Source: an uncultured Bdellovibrionales bacterium | GTDB lineage: Bacteria; Patescibacteriota; Minisyncoccia; Moranbacterales; DUUL01 | Reading direction: 5' to 3' | Assembly (NCBI GenBank): GCA_964421125.1 | Contig: CAYQVD010000004.1 | Location: 930 to 64,929, forward strand | Length of the DNA: 64,000 nt | Shown here: positions 2,679-58,825 of the stretch, piece by piece | Layout of the letters: every line of letters begins with the position of its first letter | Position numbering within the stretch: the first letter of the stretch is position 1 | Translations under genes and position numbers: made by a program | The notes under the pieces: model-generated | Told to the model about the DNA's origin: nothing | Seen by the model: the letters and a program-made list of their open reading frames with translations, nothing else | Databases searched by the model: none

Positions 2679-2933
2679 TTACCCAATTAAATAAGCTTTG
2701 AGTCTCTTTTTGATAAACATCGTCCCGTGATAAGTTTTTAAATACTTTTCACGACGTGTAGCATCTTGTTGATTTAAACAGGCTTCATAATAAATCAATT
2801 TTAAAGGTCTTCTGTTTTTTGTAGAGTTAACTTCTCCTTTCACGTGCAACTCAAATCTTAATTTTAAATTTCTAGTATATCCAATATATCTTTTTCCATC
2901 TTTCTTACTTAAAAGTACATATACATAATACAT
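2679..2933 (-). CDS. GIY-YIG nuclease-family small protein
   Basis: 84 aa starting MYYVYVLLSKKDGKRYIGYTRNLKLRFELH, which matches GIY..YIG.T.NL..R...H. Confidence 0.75.
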   Translation of the reverse strand: MYYVYVLLSKKDGKRYIGYTRNLKLRFELHVKGEVNSTKNRRPLKLIYYEACLNQQDATRREKYLKTYHGTMFIKKRLKAYLIG

Positions 2934-3070
2934 ACCAGGGGGAATTTAAAATTATTTAATCGGGTGTTGTGGATATTACTTCGACAAAATAAGTATATTA
3001 AATAAAGGCTTAATTGTCAATTTTATTCACTTAATCAATGCACCCTCCGACATAATTTTACAATTTAGTA

Positions 3071-3107
3071 TATACTAATTTATTACGATGAAATAGTTTC
3101 ATTGTAA
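3071..3107 (+). promoter_or_regulatory. Putative -10 element (TATACT, 3071-3076) followed by the 25-bp near-perfect palindrome TTACGATGAAATAGTTTCATTGTAA (3083-3107). Candidate operator or leader hairpin for the 3145 cassette
   Basis: The palindrome is seen directly. Nearly the same 40 nt recur at 43571-43610. A related GTTAC-N17-GTAAC motif occurs at 56603-56629 and 8702-8728. Confidence 0.45.
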
Positions 3108-3144
3108 TGATAAACAAACAAGTTCTTTAAAAAAGGAGAAAACA

Positions 3145-3837
3145 ATGAATATTCTCATTATCGAAGATAACGAAAATCATATTGAAGATGCAAAAGCAAT
3201 TTTTGGCGAAAACATTGAAATTGCAAAAAACTTGGATGAAGCATGGGAAAAGTTAAGAAAAAATGAATACGATGGAGTAATTTCCGATATATTCTTCTCA
3301 AAGGGAGAATGTAAATCAATTTTTTCTGATGAACACCCAGATTTTGACATCATCACAAGCATGCAATGCCAATATATCCTTGCTGGATATGGAGCAGAAA
3401 ATGATTATGCATTGGGCGCAGATGCTGACGCAAGAGAGTGGTGGATAAAAGTTCTCAGGGAAGTTGAAAAGTGGAATGGATTCAGTGGATATGAACTTCC
3501 TCCAGCAGGGGTCTTGGTTCTCAATCACTGTATCAAACACAACATCCCGATCGTGATGAACACAGACATCAAACATCATGGCTTATCAATTGCTCCAGTT
3601 GAAAGATTATGCATAAACCTCCAAATCCCCGTTATTTGCGAATACGAAGGGAAAAAGCAGTGGAAAGAAGCTCTTGAATATCTCAAAGAAGAACTTCATC
3701 CAGATACAGAAACCATTGCTCACCGCCAAAAACGCCGATCAGAGAAATATGAAACCAAAAATTCTTACAATGGAGGAATTAGAATGAACATATTAAGACA
3801 CCTAATAGAAAGAGAGAAAGAAATTGATTTCTCCTAA
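3145..3837 (+). CDS. Receiver (CheY-like) domain protein with a C-terminal extension; orphan, no kinase nearby
   Basis: MNILIIEDNENH..., ...YDGVISDIFF (Asp-pocket position), ...IPIVMNTD. There is an RBS AAGGAGAA upstream. Confidence 0.6.
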   Translation: MNILIIEDNENHIEDAKAIFGENIEIAKNLDEAWEKLRKNEYDGVISDIFFSKGECKSIFSDEHPDFDIITSMQCQYILAGYGAENDYALGADADAREWWIKVLREVEKWNGFSGYELPPAGVLVLNHCIKHNIPIVMNTDIKHHGLSIAPVERLCINLQIPVICEYEGKKQWKEALEYLKEELHPDTETIAHRQKRRSEKYETKNSYNGGIRMNILRHLIEREKEIDFS

Positions 3838-3838
3838 A

Positions 3839-3961
3839 CATCCGGGAAGTTGCAAAACATTGCGACTTCCCAATTCTCTCGGCTTTATTTGAATTGTTCA
3901 AGCGAGCCCGAGTAGAATTAAAGAATGTACTTTAAAAACTGAATATATAAAGGAGATAGAA
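3839..3961 (+). repeat. Intercistronic structured repeat copy R1 (~110 nt): hairpin GGGAAGTTGC..GCGACTTCCC, then a CTCGG..CCGAG stem, then A-rich spacer and RBS
   Basis: About 108 nt are nearly identical to 4313-4420. A diverged copy with compensatory stem changes lies at 57058-57181. Confidence 0.7.
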
Positions 3962-4303
3962 ATGACTAATGGAACTTTATTATTAGTAAGTGACAAAGAA
4001 AAAGAAATTGCAATTAACGAATTATTAGACTGCGTCGGTAAAATTACAACTGCTAAAAACAAGTTCCGTGCGCAGGAACTTCTTGAAAAAAATAATTTCA
4101 GTTTAGTAATAACTGGAAATGAAGAGTGGATGATTCGTATCGCCGGAAAAGCACTAGATCGAGAAACTCCTAAAATCATTGTATTTGAAAAATCGAAGAC
4201 TTGGCTGGGAGGATCCATTTTAGGTAAAACAGCAGGGATAGGAAAAATTCTTTGTAAAGAAAAAATGAGTTACAAAGAAGCATTGGAATTATTTCCTAAA
4301 TAA
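3962..4303 (+). CDS. Small pseudo-receiver-like protein (113 aa), hypothetical
   Basis: TLLLVSDKEKE...FSLVITGNEEW...PKIIVFEKSK resembles the receiver fold but lacks the phospho-acceptor Asp. The ORF is flanked by R1 and R2. Confidence 0.5.
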   Translation: MTNGTLLLVSDKEKEIAINELLDCVGKITTAKNKFRAQELLEKNNFSLVITGNEEWMIRIAGKALDRETPKIIVFEKSKTWLGGSILGKTAGIGKILCKEKMSYKEALELFPK

Positions 4304-4312
4304 TCACAAAAC

Positions 4313-4431
4313 CCGGGAAGTTGCAAAACATTGCGACTTCCCAATTCTCTCGGCTTTATTTGAATTGTTCAAGCGAGCCCGAGTAGAATTAAAGAATGTA
4401 CTTTAAAAACTGAATATATAAGGAGTGGGAA
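4313..4431 (+). repeat. Intercistronic structured repeat copy R2; followed only by an 8-codon ORF remnant (MKYIRLSL*)
   Basis: Direct repeat of R1, including the RBS and start-codon context. Confidence 0.7.
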
Positions 4432-4560
4432 ATGAAATATATACGTTTAAGCTTATAGGGAGAGATAAATGAAAAGCATGCTCACCATACCTTCTTATTT
4501 ATAAGGATACATGGAGATAACGAAATATTAGTACCATATGAAATATCTTTAGAGAAAAAA

Positions 4561-4743
4561 ATGGTTTCTGCGGCTCATTATTTACATTATAATTTGTCCT
4601 TAGAGAAAAATGAAAGCGTTGAGATTAACTGTGACATATATTTCCTTCTTGATAATGGCAAAGCAATAAAAGAATATCTCGAAAAAATGGGAATAAAGGT
4701 GACAATGAAGTTACCAAAACAAACTACTTTCTATTCTCGTTAA
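4561..4743 (+). CDS. Hypothetical small protein (60 aa)
   Basis: ORF closed by a terminator-like hairpin; no recognisable domain. Confidence 0.3.
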   Translation: MVSAAHYLHYNLSLEKNESVEINCDIYFLLDNGKAIKEYLEKMGIKVTMKLPKQTTFYSR

Positions 4744-4750
4744 ATCAAAA

Positions 4751-4784
4751 GGCAACGATCAAACCTGATCACTGCCTTTTTTCT
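4751..4784 (+). terminator. Rho-independent terminator-like hairpin with T-tract
   Basis: GGCAACGATCA..TGATCACTGCC stem (two internal mismatches) followed by TTTTTTC. Confidence 0.45.
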
Positions 4785-5049
4785 TTGGTTTTTTTGTTTT
4801 TATAATCCTCAAACTTTATAAAGTTTGTCAATTTAACAAAACCTTACAAAGTTTCATTATTTTCTTAATAATTTCAACTCTATATAAATTACAAAAGATA
4901 AACCGTCAATATGTGACCTGCCTTAGAAATCTATCCTCAATAAAACAAGAAATTATTTGATTAACAAGCCAATGTCAATACTTCTTTCACATAATATTTC
5001 CCTTTGATCTTTTCTTCTTCCTTTCTTTTTTTTATTTTTCTTTAATTTT

Positions 5050-7516: not shown

Positions 7517-8548
7517 TTATAACTCTTCCTCCTTATTATCAACATCCTCCTTTTTAACAGACAAAAGATCTGGATATTCAATCGCCATTTGAGTAAACTT
7601 ATCTATTTGATAAACCTCGTTCACTTCAACTTGAAAAATAATATCATTAAAATCATGTTTCATCTGATTTATCAACCCTCTTAACGCTTTTCGATCCTTA
7701 ATTTCAATATCCAACATAAGTTGCCAATTCCCCATCACTTTCACATAATTAACAATATTTGGATGTTTCACACAAAATTGATACAAAGACTCCACTTTTT
7801 CTTTGTTAAATTGTTTTATCTTAAATAAAACTCGAAACATTCTTAATCCAATAGATTGATAGTTTAAAGTAAATGTTGTTTTTGTAATAATTCCCTTTTT
7901 AATCATTTTTGTATAACTCCTATGAACAACCCCTGTTGTCACGCCCAAAACCTTTGCCATTTCTGAAAACTCCATTCTCCCATCAATTTGAAGAAGTGAA
8001 ATAATTTTTTGATCTAATTCTGACAGTTTCACTACCTTTTTAAATCCCCCTGAAACACTAACGCTTTCTTCTTCGTTTTCTTTATTAAGAAAATACGATC
8101 GAGGAAATTTCAAAAATCCCAATCCAACCACAATCTCACTCATTGTGATGTATTTACCAAATTCACCAAAAACCTCTTGAAGAATTTTATTGTGACTAAA
8201 AACATCTTGGGCAATGATTGCAATAAAAGCATCTGCATAGCCATCACATCGAAAAATAATTGGGATATACTTATTTTCTTTTAATTTCAAAAACATCGCA
8301 TCTTGTTGATCTTTAGTGAGACCACTAAATTTCAACCAATATCCCCAAAAAAATGAATATCCCACTCGATCATAATCAATAAAAGCCCAAAAATGCTTAA
8401 TAACCTCTTCATCCCTAAATCTTGCCATATGATACTTTACTACTTGTGGAGAAGTTTTAATATTTCTAGCTATTTTTGAATAACTAGCTCTTCCATCTTT
8501 TTCAAGCTCAAATAGTATTTTTTTGTCTAAATCTGTTAATTTAACCAT
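7517..8548 (-). CDS. Tandem-duplicated Lrp/AsnC-type wHTH regulator (two HTH_AsnC-like modules in one 343-aa protein)
   Basis: The first module LDKKILFELEKDGRASYSKIARNIKTSPQVVKYHMARF is repeated as LDQKIISLLQIDGRMEFSEMAKVLGVTTGVVHRSYTKM. Confidence 0.55.
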   Translation of the reverse strand: MVKLTDLDKKILFELEKDGRASYSKIARNIKTSPQVVKYHMARFRDEEVIKHFWAFIDYDRVGYSFFWGYWLKFSGLTKDQQDAMFLKLKENKYIPIIFRCDGYADAFIAIIAQDVFSHNKILQEVFGEFGKYITMSEIVVGLGFLKFPRSYFLNKENEEESVSVSGGFKKVVKLSELDQKIISLLQIDGRMEFSEMAKVLGVTTGVVHRSYTKMIKKGIITKTTFTLNYQSIGLRMFRVLFKIKQFNKEKVESLYQFCVKHPNIVNYVKVMGNWQLMLDIEIKDRKALRGLINQMKHDFNDIIFQVEVNEVYQIDKFTQMAIEYPDLLSVKKEDVDNKEEEL

Positions 8549-8701: not shown

Positions 8702-8728
8702 GTTACGATAAAATAGGTTCAAAGTAAC
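8702..8728 (+). promoter_or_regulatory. GTTACGATAAAATAGGTTCAAAGTAAC leader palindrome (family of 3083, 43586, 56603) upstream of the ORF at 8773
   Basis: GTTAC-N17-GTAAC preceded by TATTATAT; the downstream GAAAATTGAATAAAAGGAGAGGGAAATG is also conserved with the 43658 leader. Confidence 0.45.
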
Positions 8729-8772
8729 AACTTAAAGGAAGTTCATTGAAAATTGAATAAAAGGAGAGGGAA

Positions 8773-9153
8773 ATGAAAAAAAGAAATGAGTTATTAAAAT
8801 CCTTGGATAAAATTAATGGTGGAAGCGACTGGAAAGACATGCAATTTGAATTCTACTGCTTTTGGTCTAATAACCATACGTCCTCGGTCCCTCCTGGACA
8901 CATAGACACAAAAGAAGAAAATTTATTGAGAAATTTTGGTTTTGACCTAAATGCTCGTTTTATCTTCCATGTCAATTATGTAAGTTATGGTAGCATGGGA
9001 CATGAAAATTACACAGTTGCTCATATTGTCAGAAACGCGATTCTTGATCCAGAATATGACATGGAACAATTCCGAGAAGAATACACCAAAGGGAGTGATG
9101 GTTATACTTATTGTTCTACCTTCTCCATAACCATAAATCCTAAAACTTCTTAA
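8773..9153 (+). CDS. Hypothetical protein (126 aa)
   Basis: Strong RBS GGAGAGGG and the conserved leader; no recognisable domain. Confidence 0.5.
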   Translation: MKKRNELLKSLDKINGGSDWKDMQFEFYCFWSNNHTSSVPPGHIDTKEENLLRNFGFDLNARFIFHVNYVSYGSMGHENYTVAHIVRNAILDPEYDMEQFREEYTKGSDGYTYCSTFSITINPKTS

Positions 9154-23119: not shown

Positions 23120-23521
23120 ATGCGTTATCAAGTCCCACAATTTATTGATATAGAAGACAAAATTGCTTTTCAGTTAACCGCTAAGCAATTGGGTTGGTTT
23201 GCTATTGGTGGAGTAATGCTATTTGTTCTTTGGACTTTTGTTTCGTTTGTCCTGTTTGTTGTTTTTGGCATTATGATCATTGGTGCCTCAGCTGGATTAG
23301 CCTTTGTTAAGATTAATGGAGCGTCGTTATTAGAATATCTTGGTAATAGTTCAACATTTTTTTTCAAACCAAGAATTTTTATTTGGAGAAAAACAGTTAG
23401 TTCTGCAGAAGGTTTATATCAAAAAGCTAGCCCTAATTTACAGAAAAATAATAAAACAAGAGTAAAAAAGAAAAAAATTGAAGATTTAGACAAAATAGTA
23501 AACATTCTTAATTCACAGTAA
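23120..23521 (+). CDS. PrgI-family / VirB3-like small membrane protein
   Basis: MRYQVPQFIDIEDKIAFQLTAKQLGWFAIGG followed by two TM segments is the typical PrgI opening and architecture. Confidence 0.5.
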   Translation: MRYQVPQFIDIEDKIAFQLTAKQLGWFAIGGVMLFVLWTFVSFVLFVVFGIMIIGASAGLAFVKINGASLLEYLGNSSTFFFKPRIFIWRKTVSSAEGLYQKASPNLQKNNKTRVKKKKIEDLDKIVNILNSQ

Positions 23522-24234: not shown

Positions 24235-26085
24235 ATGTTCAAGTTATCTAAAAAGAAAAAAGAAAATAAAGAAAAGCAACAAATTGCTCAAGTTCCGAAT
24301 ATTAATAAGAATGATATTCAAGAGCAAAATAGAATTTACAGAGAAGGTCTAGTCAGGGTTTTAGATTTTATTGCTCCTTCAGCTTTAGCTATTTCTTCTT
24401 CTAATATTCAAATTGGAGAAGTTTATTGTCGAACGTTGTTTATAACAGCTTATCCAAAAATTTTACCAATTGGATGGATGGGGGGGATTATTTCCTTGGA
24501 TTTGCCAATGGATATATCTATTTTTGTTCACCCAATTGAAACTGTTAAGATAATGAAGTCTTTGCGAAAAAAAACCACTCAAATTCAATCAGAGCTTGAC
24601 ATCGAATCAAAAAAGGGATTAACCCGTAATCCAATGCTTGAAATGGCGTATAGAAATGTAGAAGAATTAAGAGATAAATTGCAAGAAGGAGTTGAAAAGT
24701 TTTTTAAGATGGGCGTTTATGTAAATGTTTTTGGAAAAAGTTCTGAAAAGCTTGATAAAAATGCTTCATATCTAATCACAACTCTTGAGTCACAATCAAT
24801 TTATGCGAAAAAATCAATTTTTCGGATGAAAGAAGGTTTTGACTCATGTTTACCATTATGTACGGATAAGCTTATGACTGGAATTGATTTTAATACAGCA
24901 CCTTTATCAACTTCATTTCCTTTTATTTCTGCTGATGTGACTTCTAATGAAGGAATTTTGTATGGAGTAAATAAGCACAATAATTCTTTGATTCTTTTTG
25001 ATCGTTTTACAATGGAAAATGCCAATATGGTAGTTTTTGCAAAATCTGGAGCTGGTAAAAGTTATGCGATTAAATTAGAATTATTACGTTCATTAATGCT
25101 TGGAACGAGTGTTATTGTCATTGATCCAGAAGACGAGTATCGATATTTAGCAGAGGCAGTAGATGGAAGTTTTATAAAAATTTCTCTTAACTCTCCTCAT
25201 CATGTTAATCCTTTTCAGTTAGCTATTGAAAAAGGTGTTGATATAAGCGAATTATTGAGATCTAATATCGCTAATTTACTTGGTCTTTTTAAGTTAATGC
25301 TTGGAAGTATAACCCCAGAAGAAAGCGCTGTTCTTGAGAGAGCGATTAGGGAAGTTTATGCATCAAGAGATATCTCAGAAAAAACTTCGCCAGAAAGATT
25401 AGCGGGGATTACCATGCCAATTTTATCTGATTTATATGAAGTTTTGAGAAATATGCAAGGCTCAGAGGATTTAGCAATTAGACTAGAAAAATATACAAAA
25501 GGAGTCTTTTCGGGGTTCTTAAATCATCCATCAAATATATCACTTAATAATCAGTTAGTAGTTTTTAACATTAGAGACCTTGAGGAAGAATTGAGACCAA
25601 TTGCTATGTATCTAATTTTACATCATATTTGGAATGAAATTCGAGTAGATATTAAAAAACGAATAATTGTGGTTGATGAAGCTTGGGTAATGATGGAACA
25701 TGAAGCTGCTGCAAAATTCTTATATTCAATTGCAAAAAGAGTTAGAAAATATTATGGAGGATTAACTACTATAACTCAAGATATTTCCGATTTTATGTCT
25801 TCAAAATATGGAAAACCAATTGTTTCAAATTCTTCTATGCAACTTCTTATGAAACAATCACAATCTTCGATTGATGTAGTGGCTAATACATTTTATTTAA
25901 CAGATAGAGAAAAATATCTTTTAATGAATAGTGGAGTAGGGGAAGGGATCTTTTTCGCTGGTTCTAAGCGAGCTGCAATTCAGGTGGTGGCTTCGTATAA
26001 TGAGGATAAACTTGTGACAACTGATCCAGCACAGCGCTTAGAAATGAAAAAAGAAGAAGTTTCTGATGAGATTGAATTACTTTAA
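24235..26085 (+). CDS. virB4: VirB4/TrsE/PrgJ-family type IV secretion ATPase
   Basis: ...DFIAPSALAISSSNIQIGEVYCRTLFITAYPKILPIGWMGG..., Walker A FAKSGAGKSY, Walker B IVVDEAWVMM, and ...TTITQDISDF. Confidence 0.85.
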   Translation: MFKLSKKKKENKEKQQIAQVPNINKNDIQEQNRIYREGLVRVLDFIAPSALAISSSNIQIGEVYCRTLFITAYPKILPIGWMGGIISLDLPMDISIFVHPIETVKIMKSLRKKTTQIQSELDIESKKGLTRNPMLEMAYRNVEELRDKLQEGVEKFFKMGVYVNVFGKSSEKLDKNASYLITTLESQSIYAKKSIFRMKEGFDSCLPLCTDKLMTGIDFNTAPLSTSFPFISADVTSNEGILYGVNKHNNSLILFDRFTMENANMVVFAKSGAGKSYAIKLELLRSLMLGTSVIVIDPEDEYRYLAEAVDGSFIKISLNSPHHVNPFQLAIEKGVDISELLRSNIANLLGLFKLMLGSITPEESAVLERAIREVYASRDISEKTSPERLAGITMPILSDLYEVLRNMQGSEDLAIRLEKYTKGVFSGFLNHPSNISLNNQLVVFNIRDLEEELRPIAMYLILHHIWNEIRVDIKKRIIVVDEAWVMMEHEAAAKFLYSIAKRVRKYYGGLTTITQDISDFMSSKYGKPIVSNSSMQLLMKQSQSSIDVVANTFYLTDREKYLLMNSGVGEGIFFAGSKRAAIQVVASYNEDKLVTTDPAQRLEMKKEEVSDEIELL

Positions 26086-42633: not shown

Positions 42634-43422
42634 TTATTCTATCTTATCGGTCGTATTTTGCAAATCTTTTTCTTGGAAATTCTTGGTTTCTGGTAGAAGA
42701 TTCCACATCACTTCAAAGATAGACTTAATTCCTTCAAAAATTTTTGAACTTTCAATGATAATCCCCAAGTCTTCTTTGTATGAAATTATTCCTAGTTTTG
42801 TCTTCCCGTAAATTTTTATTTCTAAATCAAGTCCAGAAAAGGCATTATCTGCGGAAAATTTTGTTTTAGTGATTCCTTTTTCTTTTATATCTTGAGCAAA
42901 GACTCTGTTTTCGGGGGAGTCAGGGACAATAGCTCTGGCCCAAATTTTTTTATTAATTCTTTCGGGCAAGTAATGTTTCCAGAAGTATTCTTCACCAAGA
43001 TTAATGTATGGATAAGGATACCAAGTCAGGATTTCCTGGTTACTATAGCGTAATGTGTCCTCAAAAACTTCTTTAACTCCAGTTAATCCCTCGAAATACC
43101 TTATTTTTGGCTTTTTATCAAGTAAGTTCATTATTGAGAGCAGTTCAGGCATGGTTTCTTCAAGCGTCTTTTTTTTAGTCTCCAGTGACTCAATGAGTTT
43201 TTGGGGGTTTTCTGCTAGGAAAATCGGCTTTTTCCCGCGGTTTGTTTGGCTTATTATTCCTTTTTTCTTAAGGTTTTCAAGGACATCATAGACAGTAGAA
43301 CGCTTGATTCCTGATTTTTGGACAATTTTAGCAATACTGGCTTCACCAAGTTCCATGATCGCTAAATAGACTTTAGCTTCTTTTTCTTCTAGCCCTGCAT
43401 CAATAAGTTTTTGAATAAGCAT
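42634..43422 (-). CDS. TrmB-like wHTH regulator (paralog 2)
   Basis: KEAKVYLAIMELGEASIAKIVQKSGIKRSTVYDVLENLKKKGII; C-terminal domain conserved with the other paralogs. Confidence 0.7.
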   Translation of the reverse strand: MLIQKLIDAGLEEKEAKVYLAIMELGEASIAKIVQKSGIKRSTVYDVLENLKKKGIISQTNRGKKPIFLAENPQKLIESLETKKKTLEETMPELLSIMNLLDKKPKIRYFEGLTGVKEVFEDTLRYSNQEILTWYPYPYINLGEEYFWKHYLPERINKKIWARAIVPDSPENRVFAQDIKEKGITKTKFSADNAFSGLDLEIKIYGKTKLGIISYKEDLGIIIESSKIFEGIKSIFEVMWNLLPETKNFQEKDLQNTTDKIE

Positions 43423-43573: not shown

Positions 43574-43610
43574 TATACTAATTTATTACGATGAAATAGC
43601 TTTATTGTAA
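43574..43610 (+). promoter_or_regulatory. TATACT -10-like element followed by the palindrome TTACGATGAAATAGCTTTATTGTAA (second copy of the 3071-3107 element)
   Basis: GTATACTAATTTATTACGATGAAATAG is identical to the 3069-3095 region. Confidence 0.45.
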
Positions 43611-43657
43611 GAAGAGGAAGATAGTTCGTTGAAAATTGAAGATAAGGGAGAGGGGAA

Positions 43658-44544: not shown

Positions 44545-45489
44545 TTATTTTCTCTTAGAATATTTTTCATAAACTTCTTTTAGTTTTTCATTGGTGACAT
44601 GGGTGTAGATTTGGGTAGTGCTGATGGAGCTGTGGCCAAGCAGGGATTGAACGCTTCGAATGTCAGCGCCATTTTGAAGAAGATTTGTGGCGAAGCTGTG
44701 ACGAAGAACGTGAGGGGTAACCTTTTTGAGAATACCGGCTTTGGCGGTGTATTTTTTTATCATTCTTTGTATTGATCGAGGAGTGAGACGCAAGTTTGAG
44801 TGCTCGCCGGGATTTTTAACGATTCTAACAAAAAGAGCGGGGTCAACATCGGTTCTTTTTTCGAGATATTTCTGAATGATGTCTCGAGCCTCTTCTGAAA
44901 TAAAAACAATTCTAATTTTTGAGCCTTTTCCTATCACGGAAAATTCTCTCTTTTTTAAATTAATTTGATCACGGTTTAACCTTGTTAATTCAGAAATTCG
45001 AAGTCCAGAAGAAAACAAGAGAATTAGAATGGCTTTATCTCTTTTTTGAGCCAGGGCTTCTCCGTCGGCAGATTTGATTATTTCTCGAACTTCTTCAATA
45101 GTGAGAAAATCAATTACACGGTCTTTCGTTTTTGCTAGTTCAATTTTTTCTGGAGCAAGTGATTTAATATTTTTTTTAGTAAGATACCCCAAAAAACCTC
45201 TTAGTGCGATAATGTAATAATTTTGAGTTCTGTGAGTGATTAATTTTTTATGAGGTCCCTTTTGACGGCTTAAAGAAACTCTGAATTTATGAACAATTTC
45301 TTCTGTGATTTCTTCTGGATTTTTTAGTTTTGACCATTTTAAAAATTTTAAAAGATAGCGATCATAGTTTTCAATTGTTTTTGGAGAACGATTTTTATCT
45401 ACTTCTAAATATTCTAGGAAATCAGTCTTTAATTTTTGTAAATTATTCATTGAAAAATGATATTTTTTATGATACACTCTTTTTACCAT
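44545..45489 (-). CDS. xerC: Tyrosine site-specific recombinase, XerC/XerD-like
   Basis: C-terminal HVLRHSFATNLLQNGADIRSVQSLLGHSSISTTQIYTHV (R..H..Y triad) and a Xer-type N-terminus. Confidence 0.8.
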   Translation of the reverse strand: MVKRVYHKKYHFSMNNLQKLKTDFLEYLEVDKNRSPKTIENYDRYLLKFLKWSKLKNPEEITEEIVHKFRVSLSRQKGPHKKLITHRTQNYYIIALRGFLGYLTKKNIKSLAPEKIELAKTKDRVIDFLTIEEVREIIKSADGEALAQKRDKAILILLFSSGLRISELTRLNRDQINLKKREFSVIGKGSKIRIVFISEEARDIIQKYLEKRTDVDPALFVRIVKNPGEHSNLRLTPRSIQRMIKKYTAKAGILKKVTPHVLRHSFATNLLQNGADIRSVQSLLGHSSISTTQIYTHVTNEKLKEVYEKYSKRK

Positions 45490-48557: not shown

Positions 48558-49310
48558 TTAATAACTTTTTATTTTTACTTTGGGCAAATTATCCCACAAA
48601 AGTTCAAAAATTGTTCTTAGTGTTTTATGGATTTCTGCTCCTTCAATAATAATTCCTATCTCTTCTCTCGAAGACATTAAGGCAACTTTTTGATGACCAT
48701 AAATATTAATTTCAACAGAAAAGGGATATTTTTTAGCATCAATTAATTTTGATGTACGTAACTGTTTTTGGTCTTTGTCGAAAAAGTTTTTCTCAATTAT
48801 TCCAGTTTTAGTCATAATTGCACGTACTCGTAAACCTTTTTCTATTCTTTTTTTAAGATAATCATTTGTCCAATCGATTCCCAAAACATTTACTACGTCT
48901 TCTGAGGCGAATGCTAACATTTCTCCGGAGTAACTTAGTGTATCCGTATAAACTTCCCTAAGACCGTTTTTTCCTTCATAAAATCTAATTTTTGGTCTTA
49001 TTCCTTTAATATTATACATGGATTTTAATATAGGCAACATTTCATCGAGTATTCTCTCTTTTTCAATTACTTCTTTCTTTATTTTTTCTGGATTTTCTGC
49101 TACAAAAAAACGCCTTTTTTCTTTAAAAGTCTCATAAATGAAATTTTCTTTTTTTAGATTAACTAAAATGTCATAACAAGTCGTTCTCTTCACTTCTGAT
49201 TTTTTGGCGATTTCAATAACTGTTCCGCTACCTAATTCTAAAACAGCTAAATAAATATTTGCTTTTTTTCCTTCAAGATCAAATTTTTTCAGAAAATCTT
49301 TTATTTGCAT
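48558..49310 (-). CDS. TrmB-like wHTH regulator (paralog 3)
   Basis: KKANIYLAVLELGSGTVIEIAKKSEVKRTTCYDILVNLKKENFI. Confidence 0.7.
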   Translation of the reverse strand: MQIKDFLKKFDLEGKKANIYLAVLELGSGTVIEIAKKSEVKRTTCYDILVNLKKENFIYETFKEKRRFFVAENPEKIKKEVIEKERILDEMLPILKSMYNIKGIRPKIRFYEGKNGLREVYTDTLSYSGEMLAFASEDVVNVLGIDWTNDYLKKRIEKGLRVRAIMTKTGIIEKNFFDKDQKQLRTSKLIDAKKYPFSVEINIYGHQKVALMSSREEIGIIIEGAEIHKTLRTIFELLWDNLPKVKIKSY

Positions 49311-50782: not shown

Positions 50783-51092
50783 GCCGGGGTAGCTCAGTGG
50801 TAGAGCAAAGGACTGGTTTTCGGTCCACTTCAGAGTAATCTGTTGTTAAAAATTGGGTGAATTCGGGGAAACCTAAGTTTGTTTAAACAAATAAGGCAAT
50901 CCCGAGCCAAGCTTCAAAGGGCTTTGTTTTTGAAGAAGGTGTAGAGACTAGCAGGTGAGTCCCAACAATAATCTTGCATAAGCGCCCAACTCCTATTAGT
51001 TAAATAGGATGATGAGATAGTCCAATCTTTTAGGAAACTTTAAGGCAAACAGGAAAATCCTTGTGTCGAGAGTTCAATTCTCTCCCCCGGCA
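50783..51092 (+). tRNA. tRNA-Phe (anticodon GAA) interrupted in the anticodon loop by a group I intron. Exon 1 is 50783-50814 and exon 2 is 51053-51092
   Basis: Joined exons give GCCGGGGTAGCTCAGTGGTAGAGCAAAGGACU|GAAAAUCCUUGUGUCGAGAGUUCAAUUCUCUCCCCCGGCA. This matches bacterial tRNA-Phe in its anticodon loop (ours CUGAAAA, 32C; E. coli UUGAAAA) and in the variable loop GUGUC. Confidence 0.75.
50815..51052 (+). ncRNA. Group I self-splicing intron (~238 nt, no ORF)
   Basis: P1 forms between the exon end GGACU and the internal guide GGUCC, with a U.G pair at the 5' splice site. A P7-like pairing is present (GACUAG at 50946 with UAGUC at 51018). The element CGGGGAAACC is present, the terminal G precedes exon 2, and the exons rejoin into a canonical tRNA. 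Confidence 0.65.
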
Positions 51093-51412: not shown

Positions 51413-52546
51413 TTACTTTTTAAAATAATTTTTTCCGTAATTTTCATAGTATTTGAAAATTTCCGGAATTGCCAGCCATTTATCTGACTGGAAACGAAGA
51501 TCTTCTGAAACTTTTAAGCGCTCATTTACTGGCAATTGCATGTGGTAGCAAGTTGTCAGTATTCCATCGGCGTCCATTCTTACTCGGTTAATAAAGTCTC
51601 CGGGAAAAGGATATGCTCCCAGAAAAAGATTGGGAGCGAGTTGGCGAATTAAAAATCCTTCATCTAAATCAGTAATCAAATCTGAAAACTCCAGGTTGGA
51701 AAAATATTTTTTCCATATTACGTGCAGAAGATTTGGAGAAAGAAAATCAACTTTAATCAAAACCTTGGTTTGCAGAGTTTTAGTTTGTAAATCTTCAATT
51801 AATTTTATCAGCAAAGAATCACTATCGCTTTTTCCTTCAAGGGTACATCTTGTAAAAAAGACCATTGGCAAGTTGAGATTTGAAATGTCATTGATTGTTT
51901 GAAAAGGATCGACACCATTTTTAACGAGAATGCAAGAAGCAGTGGCCTTAACATTATTCTCATTTAACATTTTAGCAGCTTTCAGTGATGCTGGGTAATT
52001 CTTTTTTTCGCCGATACTAAAATCTGTAAGAATATTGTTTTTTGCTAAATAAACAGCAATATCCTTGGTTAAATTTATGCCATTAGTAATAATGGCTTTG
52101 CGGGGAGCTTGCACCATTTCTAGAACGTTACGGGTGCGGTTCCATGTTTCAAGCGGTTCCATGCCAACGATGGCAAAATCAACCGCCTGAAGTTTATTGC
52201 TGACAGAAGAGAGTTCTTTTTCAGTGGGAAGGCTTTTGATCTGCATATTGCGTTTTCGTAAGTAGCAATGTCGGCATCCCAAAGAACATTGATTATTTGA
52301 AAAGGCTGAAACGCTCATGTTCAACGGAATGTTTTGTATGGTGGAGAAAAAATCAGTCCAAGACATTTTTTTGTTTGCTGTCATGAGAGTTGCTTTCTGA
52401 AAATTTTCATTTGGCTTCGTGAGTGAAGCTTTCTCTGTCAGCAGTTCTTTGCTTCCTTCTATTCCTAATGCCATAATATCATCTCCTTTCCTTTCTTGAT
52501 TATATGAATAAAGTATTCCTTTGCTTCCTTCAAATCCTACTGCCAT
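51413..52546 (-). CDS. Radical SAM protein of unknown function (CxxxCxxC motif CSLGCRHC); start ambiguous
   Basis: The C-x3-C-x2-C motif is followed by about 300 aa, with no SPASM-type Cys cluster. Two alternative RBS-supported starts (52546, 52474) result from a ~35-bp direct duplication of the start region. The track's start at 52618 would overlap the divergent promoter. Confidence 0.55.
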   Translation of the reverse strand: MAVGFEGSKGILYSYNQERKGDDIMALGIEGSKELLTEKASLTKPNENFQKATLMTANKKMSWTDFFSTIQNIPLNMSVSAFSNNQCSLGCRHCYLRKRNMQIKSLPTEKELSSVSNKLQAVDFAIVGMEPLETWNRTRNVLEMVQAPRKAIITNGINLTKDIAVYLAKNNILTDFSIGEKKNYPASLKAAKMLNENNVKATASCILVKNGVDPFQTINDISNLNLPMVFFTRCTLEGKSDSDSLLIKLIEDLQTKTLQTKVLIKVDFLSPNLLHVIWKKYFSNLEFSDLITDLDEGFLIRQLAPNLFLGAYPFPGDFINRVRMDADGILTTCYHMQLPVNERLKVSEDLRFQSDKWLAIPEIFKYYENYGKNYFKK

Positions 52547-52611
52547 AGTATCTTCTCCTATTATTAAATGTTTTTTCAAGGAACTAACTGTATGCAATAT
52601 AGTATGTAGAA

Positions 52612-52649
52612 TTGACAAGAATGTAAAAAAATGTACAATTTATGTACAT
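52612..52649 (+). promoter_or_regulatory. Promoter (TTGACA, 16-bp spacer, TACAAT) overlapped by the inverted repeat ATGTACA-N5-TGTACAT (candidate autoregulatory operator); it implies a near-leaderless mRNA for the 52650 ORF
   Basis: Spacing counted directly; the palindrome spans 52631-52649. Confidence 0.5.
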
Positions 52650-53336
52650 ATGAAAAAGAATCAATTAAAATCTAGTGAATATCTTGTCTTAACTTCAACT
52701 GAAGAAAAAATCGTTTTTCTTTTGGAATCACAACATAAAAAAATGTCAATTTCAGAAATTTCAAAAGAAGTTCAGCTTGCTCGATCTAGCATTTATCGAT
52801 CAATAAGGTCATTGATTAATAAAGAAGTTGTAATAAAAGAACAATTTAAATATTTTTTGACTTTGGATGGTTTAGTGCAAAGTAAGAAATATGTCTTTAA
52901 AGAAAAGATAGAGGATCTTTTGAAAGAAATGCTTAGTTTAAAAAAAGGAGAAATTATTTATTCAATAGAATCTGATGAGGAAATAGAATATCTTTTTAAA
53001 AAAGAGAAGGGTCTTTTAAATTGGCAAAAAAATATTGCCGATAAAGGTATAGTTCTCAAGGGAATAGGAAGTATTAGGGCGTTGTCTTTTTTTAGAAGTA
53101 TTCAGAGTAAAAATTTAAATGCTCAAATAAAAAGAAGAAGCGGTTCTGCGAGATTTATAGTTGAAACTCTCTCTGGCCCTTGTATATTAGTTTCTTTTCG
53201 AAGTTCAATTATATTTTTTTCAAGAAAAAATAAATATTTTTATCGTATAGATGATATTAATGTTTCACGATTTATACAAATTGTTATTGAGACGCTTTAT
53301 TTAAATCTTCAGTATGAACCATTAGTTATTAATTAG
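52650..53336 (+). CDS. TrmB-like wHTH regulator (paralog 6, plus strand), divergent from the radical SAM gene
   Basis: SSEYLVLTSTEEKIVFLLESQHKKMSISEISKEVQLARSSIYRSIRSLINKEVV. Confidence 0.55.
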   Translation: MKKNQLKSSEYLVLTSTEEKIVFLLESQHKKMSISEISKEVQLARSSIYRSIRSLINKEVVIKEQFKYFLTLDGLVQSKKYVFKEKIEDLLKEMLSLKKGEIIYSIESDEEIEYLFKKEKGLLNWQKNIADKGIVLKGIGSIRALSFFRSIQSKNLNAQIKRRSGSARFIVETLSGPCILVSFRSSIIFFSRKNKYFYRIDDINVSRFIQIVIETLYLNLQYEPLVIN

Positions 53337-55686: not shown

Positions 55687-56430
55687 TTAAAAAGAATTTT
55701 CATCTTCTTTTGCACCTTTCCATGCAAGCTTGAAAAGAAAGGTCATGTTTTTTGAAATTTCGGTGCTTTCGATGATTAGTCCGAGTTGTTCTGAAAAACT
55801 CATGAAAGCCACTTTGTTTTCATAAATATTCATTTCAATTGTGAAAGGAAAATCTTCTTTTGAGACAAGTCGAGTTTCTTTAATGTCTCTTAAGTCACCC
55901 TTCTTGTATTCAATTAGCTCTTCTGTGTCTGGCCCAATAGCCCGAACTGCAATTTGGGCTTTTTTTCTCTTGTCTCGATATTCATCAGCAAATTCTTGTC
56001 CAAGTTTTTTAATAATATTTTCTGTGACAAAAGCATAGAGATCTCCTCGGTATTTCAATGTATCTCGATAAACATCCTTGATTCCATTAATTCCTTCATA
56101 GTATCGAATAACAGGTTTTTCTCCGGATGTGTTCACTAAAGATTTTAAGGCTGGCATAAGAATCTCCAGTTTTTTTTGTTTTTCCTCAATAATTTTTTCA
56201 AGATTTTCTGGTTCTTCGGCGATAAACAAGCGTTTTTTGCCTTTTTTGGTTTGAGCAATCAAGCGTTTTTTTTCAAGTTCCGCCAAAACTTCATAAACAG
56301 TGGTTCTTTTGATGCCAGTTTTTCTTGATATTTCAATAACAGTCGATTGTCCCAGCTCCAAAAGGGCAATATAGGTTTCTGCTTGGTTATAATTCAGTCC
56401 AAATTGAGATAATTGTTCTGATATTTGCAT
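55687..56430 (-). CDS. TrmB-like wHTH regulator (paralog 4)
   Basis: NQAETYIALLELGQSTVIEISRKTGIKRTTVYEVLAELEKKRLI. Confidence 0.7.
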   Translation of the reverse strand: MQISEQLSQFGLNYNQAETYIALLELGQSTVIEISRKTGIKRTTVYEVLAELEKKRLIAQTKKGKKRLFIAEEPENLEKIIEEKQKKLEILMPALKSLVNTSGEKPVIRYYEGINGIKDVYRDTLKYRGDLYAFVTENIIKKLGQEFADEYRDKRKKAQIAVRAIGPDTEELIEYKKGDLRDIKETRLVSKEDFPFTIEMNIYENKVAFMSFSEQLGLIIESTEISKNMTFLFKLAWKGAKEDENSF

Positions 56431-56602
56431 GTTTTTGTTGTTAAAACATTAAAATGTCGTAAAAATATGACAACATTTATATTATATCATAATCACCATA
56501 AAAGTCAATTAAATAGGGCATTATTCAAAAGTTTAGAAACTTTTAAAACAGTCATAAGTCGTAAACGATTGACAAATACTTAAAATTGTGATATATTATA
56601 TT

Positions 56603-56629
56603 GTTACGATGAAGTTGTTTCAAAGTAAC
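56603..56629 (+). promoter_or_regulatory. GTTACGATGAAGTTGTTTCAAAGTAAC leader palindrome preceded by TATATTATAT
   Basis: Same GTTAC-N17-GTAAC architecture as 8702-8728 and related to 3083-3107. Confidence 0.45.
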
Positions 56630-56652
56630 AAGTAAAAAAAGTTCTTTAAATT

Positions 56653-57057
56653 ATGAAAAGGAGAGGGAAAATGTCAGAAGAAAAAAGAATGAAATTAACG
56701 GTGCCTGGTTGTCATAAGACTGAAATGATTACACACAGTCCAGTTTCCGAGAGTGTCTATAATTGGGGAGGTGGGTTTATTATTAAAACTTATGCAAAAA
56801 CTTCCTTTGGATCGGAAACTCTTAACGAGCAATTTTCGATTCTCTCTGACATGGTTATAGAAAATTCAAAAACTGGTGATTGTGAGGGCTGTGTCTGCAA
56901 TAATGATCAATGCAAAAGGTTACCGGGGCTTATTGATGCCGTTGTTAAAAATTTCTCTGGGACAGCTTGGTTTATAGACGTAACTAAGAAAAAAATTGTA
57001 AAAGTTGAAAATCGTGAGGAGGCGATCAATATTATGAGAAAAGTTGAGAAAAGTTAA
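56653..57057 (+). CDS. Hypothetical Cys-containing small protein (134 aa)
   Basis: RBS GGAGAGGG; no recognisable domain. Confidence 0.5.
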   Translation: MKRRGKMSEEKRMKLTVPGCHKTEMITHSPVSESVYNWGGGFIIKTYAKTSFGSETLNEQFSILSDMVIENSKTGDCEGCVCNNDQCKRLPGLIDAVVKNFSGTAWFIDVTKKKIVKVENREEAINIMRKVEKS

Positions 57058-57181
57058 AAAATCGGGAAGCTCTGCTTAATAAGCACCTTCCCAATTCTCT
57101 CGGGGTTATTTGAGTGGTTTAAATAGCTCCGAGTAGAGTTAAAGTTATTTGAAATTGAATATAAAAAAAAGGAGAAAGAAA
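57058..57181 (+). repeat. Intercistronic structured repeat copy R3 (diverged; GGGAAGCTCTGC..GCACCTTCCC hairpin, CTCGG..CCGAG stem, TTAAAG, RBS)
   Basis: About 70% identical to R1 and R2, with compensatory substitutions in both stems. Confidence 0.65.
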
Positions 57182-57593
57182 ATGAAACATAGATTAATGA
57201 TAGTGGAAGATCAATTAATTAATATGATTTGTGCATTAACTGCTTTTACTGAGATGATTGATATTGAGGTGGGCGATGTGCAAGGGACTGTTTTGGGTGC
57301 ATTGAAGATGATTGACGAGTTTTGTCCAATGATGGTCCTTAAATTCTATTCCAAATCTTAATGGCGGAGGGAGTGGAACTGAAATCGGAGAAGTTTTGAA
57401 AGCAAAAAATATCCCGTTTCTTTATGTGACAGGGGTTGGACCAAATCCGAGTCATGACTGTATTAACGCAGTCGAAATTCAAGATTCTGACTTCAAAACT
57501 CTTGAGAGATTTGAATGTGTTGATAAGAATCCTGAAATTTGGCAAAAGGGTTTTGAAATTTTAAAGGAAAGAATCAGAAGGGAGATTGAATAA
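57182..57593 (+). pseudogene. Receiver-like domain gene apparently disrupted by a +1 frameshift between 57333 and 57358 (alternatively two small ORFs)
   Basis: Frame A gives MKHRLMIVEDQLIN...DEFCPMMVL then stops; frame B continues ...NGGGSGTEIGEVLKAKNIPFLYVTGVG...KGFEILKERIRREIE, which is receiver-like (IPFLYVTG is close to the usual IPVIMLTA). Confidence 0.4.
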
Positions 57594-57595
57594 TC

Positions 57596-57637
57596 ATAAG
57601 CAGGAAGATATAAAATATTTTCCTGCTTATTTTTTAT
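57596..57637 (+). terminator. Rho-independent terminator
   Basis: AAGCAGGAA..TTCCTGCTT stem followed by ATTTTTTATTTT. Confidence 0.65.
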
Positions 57638-57697
57638 TTTCAATAAATAAGCTATACTTAGTATAGGTTTTTAAATGATAAATTATATATAGTATTT

Positions 57698-58825
57698 ATG
57701 GATAAATTTTTTAATAAAATTTTCAATAAGCCATCAAGTAAGATTGAGAAAGAAAAAGAAGAGGAGTTAAAGCTCAATCTTCTTATCTTTGATGATTCAG
57801 ATGATCAGGAGTATGCTTTTCATTTAGATTTTCAATTCAATGATAATGATGATTTTAAGACAAAGGCTGAAGTGGCAAGTAATGTTGATGAAATAATAAA
57901 AAAAGCGGAACAGGAGGAGTTAGATATTATTTTTATTTCAAATCCGGATTCGATAAATGAAAACTTGTTTAAGGGAATTGTAAAAATGAGAAATGATGTG
58001 AACGTGAAAAAGCAACCAATCGTTTTTATTATGACTAGTGATAAAAATAGAAGTGAAGTGGAGAGAATACAAAAGTATGCTACAGATATAATTGAATTGC
58101 CTCCATATATAAATCTTGAAAAACTTCCTAGTCAAATTAATTCTGTTCCAGGACTACTTGGATGGGTTGATGATGAATATGGTGAAAAGATGACAAGGAA
58201 TAAGATTTCTTTTTATAAGGAATATAAGGACAAGTTGATGGAGCGATCTGATTTTACAGCGGATACAGAAAAAGAGTTGGAAATTTTAGAAGAAATTTTT
58301 GAAAAAAATAATGTTAAAAAAGTTTTAGATGCTGGTGGTGGGGAAGGGAGAATTGCCGTTCCTCTAAGTGAGAATGATTATGAAGTAGTGAACATTGATT
58401 CTTCACAAAAACTTATTGAAAAGATGAATGAATCTCAAAGTGAAGTGATTGGAACGGTTGGTGATTTGAAAAAAATACCAATAGAAGCCGAAAGCCAAGA
58501 CGCGGTTACTTATAACTGGCATGTTTTTTGTGATATTCTGGGAAACAAAGGGAAGGAGGAAACGTTAGATGAAGCTCATCGTGTGCTTAAGAGTGGAGGT
58601 GTTATTGTTCTTGATATTCCAAATAGAGAAGGAGGGTCTTATGAGAAAGATGGGGTTTATGTTCAAAATCCTGGTGGAGAAAATATTTTCATTGGATATA
58701 CTCCAGGGGAAGATGAGATGAAAAAATATTTAGAAAATTCAAAATTTCAAGATATAGAAATTAAAAAATGGGAAACCAAAACTGGTTTCAAAAAAATTAC
58801 CTTTATCGCGAAAAAGATAGATTAA
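57698..58825 (+). CDS. Receiver-like N-terminal domain fused to a class I SAM-dependent methyltransferase
   Basis: LLIFDDSDD...LDIIFIS...PIVFIMTSDKN (receiver-like); VLDAGGGEGRIAV and VLKSGGVIVLD (methyltransferase motifs I and post-II). Confidence 0.65.
   Translation: MDKFFNKIFNKPSSKIEKEKEEELKLNLLIFDDSDDQEYAFHLDFQFNDNDDFKTKAEVASNVDEIIKKAEQEELDIIFISNPDSINENLFKGIVKMRNDVNVKKQPIVFIMTSDKNRSEVERIQKYATDIIELPPYINLEKLPSQINSVPGLLGWVDDEYGEKMTRNKISFYKEYKDKLMERSDFTADTEKELEILEEIFEKNNVKKVLDAGGGEGRIAVPLSENDYEVVNIDSSQKLIEKMNESQSEVIGTVGDLKKIPIEAESQDAVTYNWHVFCDILGNKGKEETLDEAHRVLKSGGVIVLDIPNREGGSYEKDGVYVQNPGGENIFIGYTPGEDEMKKYLENSKFQDIEIKKWETKTGFKKITFIAKKID

Follow-up and report, generated by a model that had tools for sequence, protein, structure and literature searches.

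We describe a structured RNA element that lies between the cistrons of two small operons in a 64,000-nucleotide (nt) stretch of DNA, called the window in what follows, from contig CAYQVD010000004.1 (positions 930 to 64,929) of assembly GCA_964421125.1, deposited as an uncultured Bdellovibrionales bacterium and placed by GTDB in the Patescibacteriota (Minisyncoccia; Moranbacterales; DUUL01). The element, represented by three copies in the window and by three more in two related species, is a sense-strand structured RNA that has been kept by compensatory change under purifying selection, and it constitutes a new RNA motif outside any catalogued RNA family. We put at roughly one half the probability that it acts in cis on the mRNA to set the expression ratio of the neighbouring cistrons, serving as a decay barrier and/or a processing landmark.

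Copies and structure of the repeat

An earlier note, made from the sequence of the window alone, had described three copies of an intercistronic repeat of about 110 nt, each running from a stop codon to the ribosome-binding site and start codon of the next gene. Alignment (of 3825–3975, 4298–4445 and 57045–57195) and a covariance model bear out both the copies and their limits:

3842–3961, + strand: copy 1 of the repeat, between a TAA stop at 3835–3837 and the ATG at 3962
4313–4431, + strand: copy 2 of the repeat, between a TAA stop at 4301–4303 and the ATG at 4432
57062–57181, + strand: copy 3 of the repeat, between a TAA stop at 57055–57057 and the ATG at 57182

In each of them the repeat starts 6–15 nt 3′ of the TAA stop and ends in an AAGGAG Shine-Dalgarno (SD) sequence and the ATG of the next gene. 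Copies 1 (3842–3950) and 2 (4313–4421) are identical at 109 of 109 nt, from CCGGGAAG to TGAATATATAA, and copy 3 is about 74–78% identical to both. The 16-mer TTCCCAATTCTCTCGG occurs exactly three times in the window (0.68 expected by chance), as does the frame of the first hairpin, GGGAAG-N(8-24)-CTTCCC (0.02 expected). A covariance model built on the three copies and scored over the whole window with filters off returned only these copies, at 124, 124 and 94 bits; the next-best score, 27 bits, came from the reverse strand of the palindromic first hairpin and was followed by ordinary terminator hairpins. The copies occupy exactly the three cistron junctions of two multi-gene operons with a shared leader, all in the sense orientation.

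On the + strand every window copy folds into two abutting hairpins, P1 and P2, and an unpaired A/U-rich tail:

3844–3871, + strand: P1 of copy 1, GGGAAGUUGCAA-AACA-UUGCGACUUCCC, 12 bp with a tetraloop, 6 nt past the TAA of a gene for 230 amino acids (aa)
3872–3919, + strand: P2 of copy 1, AAUUCUCUCGG...CCGAG-U-AGAAUU, with 21 pair positions and one bulged U
3920–3961, + strand: tail of copy 1, unstructured and A/U-rich, AAAG..GUACUUUAAAAACUGAAUAUAUA, with the SD AAGGAG at 3950–3955
4315–4342, + strand: P1 of copy 2, same as copy 1, 11 nt past the TAA of a 113-aa gene
4343–4390, + strand: P2 of copy 2, same as copy 1
4391–4431, + strand: tail of copy 2, with the SD AAGGAG at 4420–4425 and the ATG at 4432
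57064–57092, + strand: P1 of copy 3, GGGAAG(CUC)UGCUU-AAU-AAGCA(C)CUUCCC, with an invariant 6-bp base and a rebuilt upper stem
57093–57140, + strand: P2 of copy 3, with 21/21 canonical pairs, 4 of them G-U, and 12 positions that differ from copy 1
57141–57181, + strand: tail of copy 3, AAAGUUAUUUGAAAUUGAAUAUA, with the SD AAGGAG at 57169–57174 and the ATG at 57182

The 10-bp hairpin and second stem of the earlier note therefore both exist but were drawn too short, P1 comprising 12 bp and P2 21 bp. In the shared register 19 of the 21 pair positions of P2 are canonical in copy 1, and no linker separates P2 from P1. The unpaired tail follows the consensus UUAAAG...GU(A/U)NNUU(U/G)AAA(A)(C/U)UGAAUAUA up to the SD. 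Fold z-scores on the + strand are -5.7, -5.4 and -4.9 for copies 1, 2 and 3 and are weaker on the - strand, the antisense fold being 7–12 kcal/mol weaker than the sense fold across the copies (-26.3 vs -37.6 kcal/mol in copy 3).

As a separate observation, two metagenome assemblies (L001, ending at its position 3347, and L002, ending at 2980) both stop 13 nt into copy 2, at window position 4325. The assemblies are independent, and the breaks probably reflect the repeat in combination with the palindrome of P1; the population may vary at this junction.

Conservation of the pairing

Copies 1 and 3 differ at 12 of the 48 positions of P2 (8 transitions and 4 transversions), which include one double change (U-G to G-C) and five single changes that wobble pairing tolerates, and despite these substitutions the number of canonical pairs rises from 19 to 21 of 21. 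Random mutation of the copy 1 P2 with the same numbers of changes leaves 14.3 pairs on average (P(≥21) = 2e-5); the simulation in reverse gives P = 0.015, and tests based on minimum free energy give P = 0.0016 and 0.07. P1 has kept its six basal pairs unchanged; higher up, its stem has been rebuilt, with an internal loop and two A-U pairs turned into U-A. The strings that the earlier note had quoted as compensatory changes were imprecise, the base of P1 being the same in copies 1 and 3 and its upper part rebuilt.

The 113-aa and 230-aa products find only themselves in searches, so that the genes flanking the repeat could not be used to find relatives; related species were instead reached through the DNA around nine orthologues of the neighbouring TrmB-type gene (1881–2666). 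Some 215 kb of this DNA was scanned with the covariance model of the three window copies (R1), and its only non-coding matches of at least 25 bits are the following, in loci labelled L039 and L044:

L039 9055–8958, - strand: copy in the first intercistronic gap (intergenic region 1, IGR1), 25–26 bits
L039 8650–8558, - strand: copy in the second intercistronic gap (IGR2), 25–26 bits
L044 378–283 (the same as L043 6402–6307): copy in an intercistronic gap, 25–26 bits

All three lie in gaps of small-gene operons divergent from TrmB-family genes. The L039 regulator is a 78% orthologue of the TrmB gene, and the first gene of the L039 operon shares the receiver-like N-terminus of the 230-aa protein. 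The earlier note had named, as grounds for its own refutation, further copies that lack the stems or a consistent position; the three added copies, from two species, keep both stems and the position between cistrons, in favour of its reading. Folded as single sequences, these copies form P1 stems of 13, 13 and 8 bp abutting P2 stems of 17, 19 and 19 bp, with z-scores of -4.7, -7.2 and -5.1 and antisense strands 8.5–12 kcal/mol weaker than the sense strands.

A cross-species alignment guided by the covariance model comprises six instances, or five distinct sequences, from three species. Identity between species is only 31–45% on this alignment, and 94.9% of the pair cells are canonical; 23 of the 33 pairs have changed on both sides, among them 14 of the 21 pairs of P2. 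None of 500 shuffles reaches any of the observed measures of pairing or covariation, and sliding the pairing partner by 1–3 columns lowers pairing to 39–56%. RNAalifold recovers the same structure from the five sequences, with a covariation term of -8.65 kcal/mol. G-U pairs make up 22 of the 150 canonical pair cells, which would leave the complementary strand with no more than 84% pairing. Primary sequence is shared across species at the G-rich base of P1, in a pyrimidine tract, (Y)CUCUY, that directly follows P1 and forms the 5′ strand of P2, at the purine-rich 3′ end of P2, in an A-run, and in the tail AAAGUUAUUU(G/A)AAAU, where copy 3 and L039 IGR1 agree at 14 of 15 positions. The loops differ between species, that of P1 being AACA, AAU, AAUC or 8 nt long and those of P2 varying likewise, and P1 and P2 are joined without a linker. 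A fold that persists in two related species by way of compensating mutations identifies a real, previously uncatalogued RNA element internal to operons, and the earlier note's proposal of a functional RNA, founded on covariation and on a constant position between cistrons, now stands on much stronger support.

Further searches delimit the family. A second covariance model (R2), built on the five sequences, detects no additional members in 221 kb (the window and 12 loci of relatives) or in viral loci, and no copy is present at L024–L032, L038, L041 and L045, which represent six other TrmB orthologues or relatives; where a TrmB locus is devoid of copies, the divergent unit is absent, monocistronic or cut by the end of the contig. 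Rfam 15, run over the whole window at gathering thresholds, reports only tRNAs and a group I intron and no family on the element, and permissive scans (E up to 5–10) of 2900–4900, 56500–57700 and L039 8250–10000 yield only sub-threshold matches to generic hairpins of miRNA precursors. Scans of genome, metagenome and viral collections for exact or degenerate patterns of the element produced only chance matches, in unrelated G+C-rich genomes, coding regions and viral contigs; those rescanned failed the covariance models, and the two metagenome matches were inspected in their sequence as well. These collections evidently do not hold contigs of this lineage, and the source metagenomes were not recovered there. 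A BLAST comparison of the element with phages gave only a 45-nt A/T-rich match, likewise due to chance. Extension of the source contig past the window added next to nothing, since on one side the window reaches the contig's end and on the other a contig of just 2.7 kb was at hand.

Two other readings of the spacer sequence were rejected. The first is a small open reading frame (ORF): copies 1 and 2 contain a 21-codon frame opening with TTG, which a double stop (TAA TAA) interrupts in copy 3, and the 31-codon frame of L039 IGR1 lacks a start codon in IGR2. The second is an internal promoter within P2, TTGAAT-18-TAGAAT, which is weakened in copy 3 and absent in the relatives.

Operons, leaders and neighbouring genes

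The window, which has 31% G+C and encodes DnaA, DnaN, IF-2 and MetRS, belongs to a cellular genome, and the best relatives of the gene neighbouring the first operon come from metagenome-assembled genomes (MAGs) of Moranbacteria and Parcubacteria. That TrmB-type gene (1881–2666) is 70–86% conserved in hundreds of MAGs of the candidate phyla radiation (CPR). The two operons that carry the element are laid out as follows:

1881–2666, - strand: TrmB-family regulator, divergent from operon A and used to find syntenic loci
3047–3144, + strand: promoter and leader of operon A, with a -10 box TATACT, 6 nt, the palindrome TTACGATGAAATAGTTTCATTGTAA (3083–3107) and then the AGTTCTTTAAAAAAGGAG box
3145–3837, + strand: operon A gene 1, a 230-aa ORFan with a receiver-like N-terminus
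3962–4303, + strand: operon A gene 2, a 113-aa ORFan between the two identical copies
4432–4743, + strand: operon A gene 3, a 103-codon frame with an in-frame TAG at 4456–4458 and its stop at 4741–4743
about 4750–4790: terminator of operon A, a hairpin and T-run just past the stop of gene 3
55687–56430, - strand: TrmB-family regulator, divergent from operon B and 32% identical to the regulator at 1881–2666
56569–56670, + strand: promoter and leader of operon B, with TTGACA-17-TATATT, a palindrome at 56604–56628 and the same box as operon A
56671–57057, + strand: operon B gene 1, an ORFan of 128 aa from the SD-proximal ATG
57182–57593, + strand: operon B gene 2, receiver-like, with a 1-nt frameshift near 57340–57362
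57596–57640: terminator of operon B

Both operons follow one design, in which a divergent TrmB gene faces a sigma-70-like promoter, a palindrome, a box and an SD. The spacers are 74–78% identical although the flanking ORFans are unrelated and the two regulators share only 32% identity. Among 5.8 billion proteins the flanking genes have no homologues, and they show no similarity to one another except for weak features of a receiver domain. The 230-aa protein gives sub-threshold matches to Response_reg at residues 3–49 (E = 0.007) and, at residues 130–227 (E = 0.0035), to FlbT, an mRNA-binding regulator; a single-sequence AlphaFold model of it is unusable, with a predicted local distance difference test (pLDDT) score of 43. 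The earlier note had seen behind copy 2 only an 8-codon remnant and had taken it as a sign of cassette turnover, but the frame extends over 103 codons with a single in-frame TAG, and this nonsense codon points to pseudogenisation of the last gene and not to a truncated cassette. The frame is either a nonsense pseudogene or, less likely, contains a recoding site. The same TAG (codon 9 of gene 3) is present in an independent metagenome contig, L003. L005, L006 and L033 have the frameshift of operon B too, and precisely at that point contig L004 breaks off.

The leaders contain a 25-nt palindrome, TTACGATGAA..TTTCA..GTAA, placed exactly 6 nt past the -10 box and found four times in the window (0 expected), and, between it and the SD, the box AGTTCNTT(G/A)AAA:

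3083–3107, 8703–8727, 43586–43610 and 56604–56628; L038 10–34 (reverse strand): leader palindromes
3120–3140, 8739–8765, 43622–43650 and 56639–56660; L045 about 9820–9800 (- strand) and L043 about 9858–9845 (- strand): leader boxes

The other two palindromes of the window precede single-gene units at 8773 and 43658. Inner positions of the palindrome change without compensation (CATTG to CAAAG), so it has the look of an operator in the DNA where transcription starts and not of an RNA hairpin. The units that bear it are divergent from TrmB- or AsnC-type regulator genes, and the L038 copy adjoins an 83% TrmB orthologue. In the extended form (A)GTTCNTT(G/A)AAA(A)TTGAA, upstream of the SD, the box is common to four leaders and the three intercistronic tails, and it is kept in the leaders of orthologous units of two other species (L045 and L043). 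It may be a common regulatory site, with a TTC-N3-GAA dyad, or a translation-initiation module. The four leaders match the A/U tail of the element in their 3′ part, so only the P1-P2 block is unique to the intercistronic copies. In L039, a hairpin module of about 50 nt stands immediately ahead of the SD both in the leader (9780–9725, - strand) and in the first spacer (8945–8896, - strand); its sequence is C(T/C)GATGCAGACACCCAA.G.GGACTACAGAGCATCGGA(A/T)AAGGAGATAA, and it parallels the initiation box of the window with a different sequence.

The window is unusually dense in winged-helix regulators, its 64 kb holding five genes of the TrmB family and one double gene of AsnC type:

1881–2666, 42634–43422, 48558–49310, 52521–53336 and 55687–56430: TrmB-type regulators
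7517–8548: tandem AsnC-type regulator

Several of these regulators are paired with divergent small ORFan units, and the same pattern is seen in a relative (L024). Elsewhere in the window, a group I intron (Rfam, 87.9 bits; 50805–51044, within about 50785–51092) splits the anticodon loop of a tRNA gene into the exon halves GCCGGGGTAGCTCAGTGGTAGAGCAAAGGACT and AAAATCCTTGTGTCGAGAGTTCAATTCTCTCCCCCGGCA, for which ARAGORN makes no call, and the segment 23120–26085 holds genes resembling those of type IV secretion or conjugation (PrgI family, 23120–23521; TraG/VirB4-type ATPase, 24235–26085), surrounded by large ORFans of 721 and 1298 aa.

Proposed function, rival explanations and known systems

In the explanation that we favour, the element would tune the relative expression of the cistrons on either side of it. 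P1 is a G+C-based hairpin of terminator type in which a UCUCU-type pyrimidine tract replaces the U-run, and that tract is also the 5′ strand of P2, an A/U- and G-U-rich hairpin of 19–21 bp. RNA polymerase would read through P1. The P1-P2 block would then bar the way to 3′-to-5′ exonucleases (a relative encodes one of these, PNPase) and/or mark where an endonuclease cuts, be it the A/U-rich tail or the P2 helix of about 20 bp. The upstream cistron would keep a protected 3′ end and neighbouring cistrons would in consequence be unequally expressed, while the downstream cistron would be translated independently from its own open A/U-rich initiation region. The earlier note had offered a processing site, an attenuator or a translation-coupling element, and on computational grounds all three stay candidates.

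The placement of the hairpins agrees with this proposal. From stop codon to P1 there are 6 nt in copies 1 and 3 and 11–20 nt in the other four of the six instances, and from P2 to the SD the distance ranges from 18 to about 70 nt across the window and the relatives; the hairpins are therefore part of the upstream cistron's 3′ end and not of a switch that sequesters the SD. Several points weigh against the proposal. Read-through, cleavage and differential stability are predictions made from sequence, the element is known from only six instances (five distinct sequences) in three species, and the alignment leans towards the structure of the covariance model, though RNAalifold and the single-sequence folds agree with it. 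A score of 25 bits is not specific by itself, as a 27.6-bit match to R1 falls inside a coding gene in L028, L029, L030 and L031. The P1 hairpins of the relatives may have been recruited independently from local terminators, which would make them analogous and not homologous. Lastly, the final gene of both window operons is disrupted, by a nonsense codon and a frameshift respectively, so that these operons may be decaying.

The main rival, which we consider unlikely on balance, is that P1 and its pyrimidine tract form a leaky intrinsic terminator or attenuator that stops some polymerases, with the result that downstream genes are transcribed less and P2 is an accessory; in a variant, stopping possibly depends on how closely a ribosome follows to the nearby stop codon. 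Attenuators inside operons are well established, as in rplKAJL-rpoBC and rpsU-dnaG-rpoD, and P1 is a hairpin of the terminator type, with 8–13 bp and a G-C base. Its sequence is clearly paralogous, in two species, to that of the real terminator of the operon: P1 of L044 shares with that terminator a 17-nt run, ACAACCGCGTTCTGCCT, beyond which P1 continues as TCTCTTCTT and the terminator as TTTTTTATTTT, with TCTCTT in place of TTTTTT, and P1 of L039 shares a 12-nt run, GTTGAATCTAAC, with its operon terminator, with TCTCTC in place of TTTTTTC. Judged by sequence, P1 of the relatives is thus a terminator-type hairpin whose U-run appears disabled and has given way to a tract that pairs within P2. 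Of the 8 nt that follow P1, 4–5 are U, and in copies 1 and 3 P1 lies within reach of a terminating ribosome, 6 nt from the stop. Against this rival, the spacing is 11–20 nt in the other four copies, and the tract falls short of the U-run of intrinsic terminators (at least 5 of 8), with 4 of 8 U in the window copies (AAUUCUCU) and 4–5 of 8 in L039 and L044 (UCUCUCUA, UCUCUUAU and UCUCUUCU); its C residues are conserved in all three species where terminators have U, and a terminator scan calls none of the three window copies. P1 followed by UCUCU instead of a U-run is consistent with a hairpin that is read through. Unlike at an intrinsic terminator, moreover, the tract is base-paired into a second, conserved hairpin and a gene with its SD and start codon follows 18–70 nt on. 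No promoter is conserved in the stretch between, and canonical terminators close each operon. A leaky terminator also gives no reason for the covariation of P2, with double changes in 14 of 21 pairs. Partial termination at P1 could coexist with stabilisation or processing.

Two side observations concern the terminators themselves. In one relative, the terminators of unrelated genes share the consensus GGCAGTTCGCACAnCCGCG..CTGCCTTTTTTATTTTGCC (L043 9245–9195 and L044 95–45, both - strand), which makes terminator hairpins a repeated sequence family in these genomes, and the L039 terminator (8325–8272, - strand) carries the stop codon of the last gene within its loop.

Less probable still is a site for a trans-acting factor, either a small RNA or a protein encoded within the operon or elsewhere, that controls translation of the downstream gene in the manner of a riboswitch-like switch or translational operator. 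Adjoining the SD, the tail box GUUNNUUGAAAAU is common to the four leaders and the intercistronic copies of the window; it recurs in the tail of L039 IGR1 and in leaders of L043 and L045, which suggests a common regulator of all these initiation regions. The 230-aa protein gives the weak FlbT-like match; that match is below threshold, however, and the model of the protein is unusable. The loops and the P1-P2 junction are not conserved between species, unlike in RNAs that bind ligands or proteins, the hairpins are not joined by a linker, and no conserved alternative helix pairs with the SD, whose distance from P2 is variable.

A comparably speculative proposal, to which we would give little weight, concerns the origin of the junctions. 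ORFans would have been appended behind an existing terminator, whose U-run was converted to UCUCU and locked into P2, and near-identical junctions, each with a ribosome-binding box of its own, would provide portable homology through which gene-plus-junction units could be duplicated, exchanged between TrmB-controlled operons or lost. CPR bacteria would thereby have a ‘cassette’ system that needs no integrase and in which read-through might be conditional. Such portable homology would explain the 113-aa gene between its 109-nt perfect repeats.

It is very unlikely that the repeat acts at the DNA level, as a recombination site or small mobile element at cassette boundaries (attC- or REP/MITE-like; repetitive extragenic palindrome, miniature inverted-repeat transposable element) with hairpins in single-stranded DNA. 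Integron attC sites in chromosomal cassette arrays, such as the VCRs of Vibrio, are known, and the element resembles them as a structured repeat of about 110–120 nt between small ORFans of the same orientation, with neighbouring copies nearly identical: the 113-aa gene lies between direct repeats that cover exactly the spacer, the flanking genes are unrelated, and a tyrosine recombinase is encoded at 44545–45489. Unlike such arrays, the operons have one or two junctions and each its own promoter, leader and terminator. The R″/R′ core sites (RYYYAAC...GTTRRRY) are missing, the ends reading ..CCGGGAAG.. and ..TGAATATA.AAGGAG and neither GTTGCAA nor GTTCAAG fitting GTTRRRY; the two ends do not pair, all five distinct sequences forming two independent hairpins and an unpaired 3′ tail. 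The recombinase, which has no other of the tyrosine family beside it among the window ORFs with 120 aa or more, belongs to the Xer type (NF040815, 258 bits; 145 bits against the integron integrase model TIGR02249, whose cut-off is 265) and lies 12–40 kb from the copies. As regards REP, bacterial interspersed mosaic element (BIME) or MITE dispersal, the three copies in 64 kb are all in sense at junctions of one operon type, and no copy is inverted or stands outside a junction. The ends do not form inverted repeats, no target duplications were found in the window, and the window ORFs scanned include no transposase, the Y1 (REP-associated tyrosine transposase, RAYT) family included. Sense-strand-specific pairing that depends on G-U fits RNA better.

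Least probable of all is a non-functional relic, in which former terminators were left behind after genes were added downstream and resemble each other through recent duplication or gene conversion, as the paralogy of P1 to terminators, the identity of copies 1 and 2 and the disrupted terminal genes might suggest, for the changes that separate copies 1 and 3 strongly favour the retention of P2 (P ~2e-5) and both helices persist in three species at 31–45% identity with 23 covarying pairs, which neutral decay would not produce.

CPR bacteria, or Patescibacteria, have tiny genomes and few recognisable regulators, and to our knowledge almost none of their RNA biology has been studied experimentally. 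The family described here is small and its mechanism is put forward on comparative grounds, but it is among the very few cis-RNA candidates specific to CPR bacteria that have covariation behind them and, recurring in several Moranbacteria-like species, a candidate family for RNA databases. It offers a concrete handle on the tuning of expression within CPR operons of fast-evolving small genes, and the link between P1 and terminators affords a simple and testable picture of operon growth through conversion of a terminator into a read-through hairpin.

A conceptual parallel is the plastid intercistronic expression element (IEE), a short element that is reported to promote the processing of polycistronic RNA into stable, translatable units (PMC2230500). 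Both elements are short and lie between cistrons; the IEE belongs to plastids, the two have no sequence relationship, and the resemblance is one of concept only.

The element is of an ordinary functional kind, concerned with mRNA stability, read-through or expression balance, and does not represent a new principle, expression-shaping intercistronic hairpins being well known in operons. Processing sites between cistrons include the RNase III sites between early and late genes of phage T7 and the RNase Y processing of the Bacillus cggR-gapA transcript. Like these, the element has an irregular helix of about 20 bp (P2) between cistrons, with an A/U-rich single strand beside it, and cleavage at P2 would, by analogy, leave an upstream product protected by a hairpin; unlike these, it has no conserved internal loop in P2 (two mismatches in copy 1, none in copy 3), and its P1 is without a counterpart. 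Intercistronic hairpins that stabilise mRNA are represented by the REP hairpins of malE-malF in Escherichia coli and the stem-loops of the puf operon in Rhodobacter capsulatus. The element differs from REP in not being a repeat dispersed throughout the genome, and from both in its fixed pair of abutting hairpins, its pyrimidine tract and A/U tail and its confinement to one operon type of one CPR lineage. It shares with them sense-strand hairpins just past a cistron, the absence of a U-run, a ribosome-binding site of the next gene's own and an intercistronic RNA helix maintained by selection, and by analogy the same outcome would be expected, namely a protected upstream 3′ end and unequal expression of the neighbouring cistrons.

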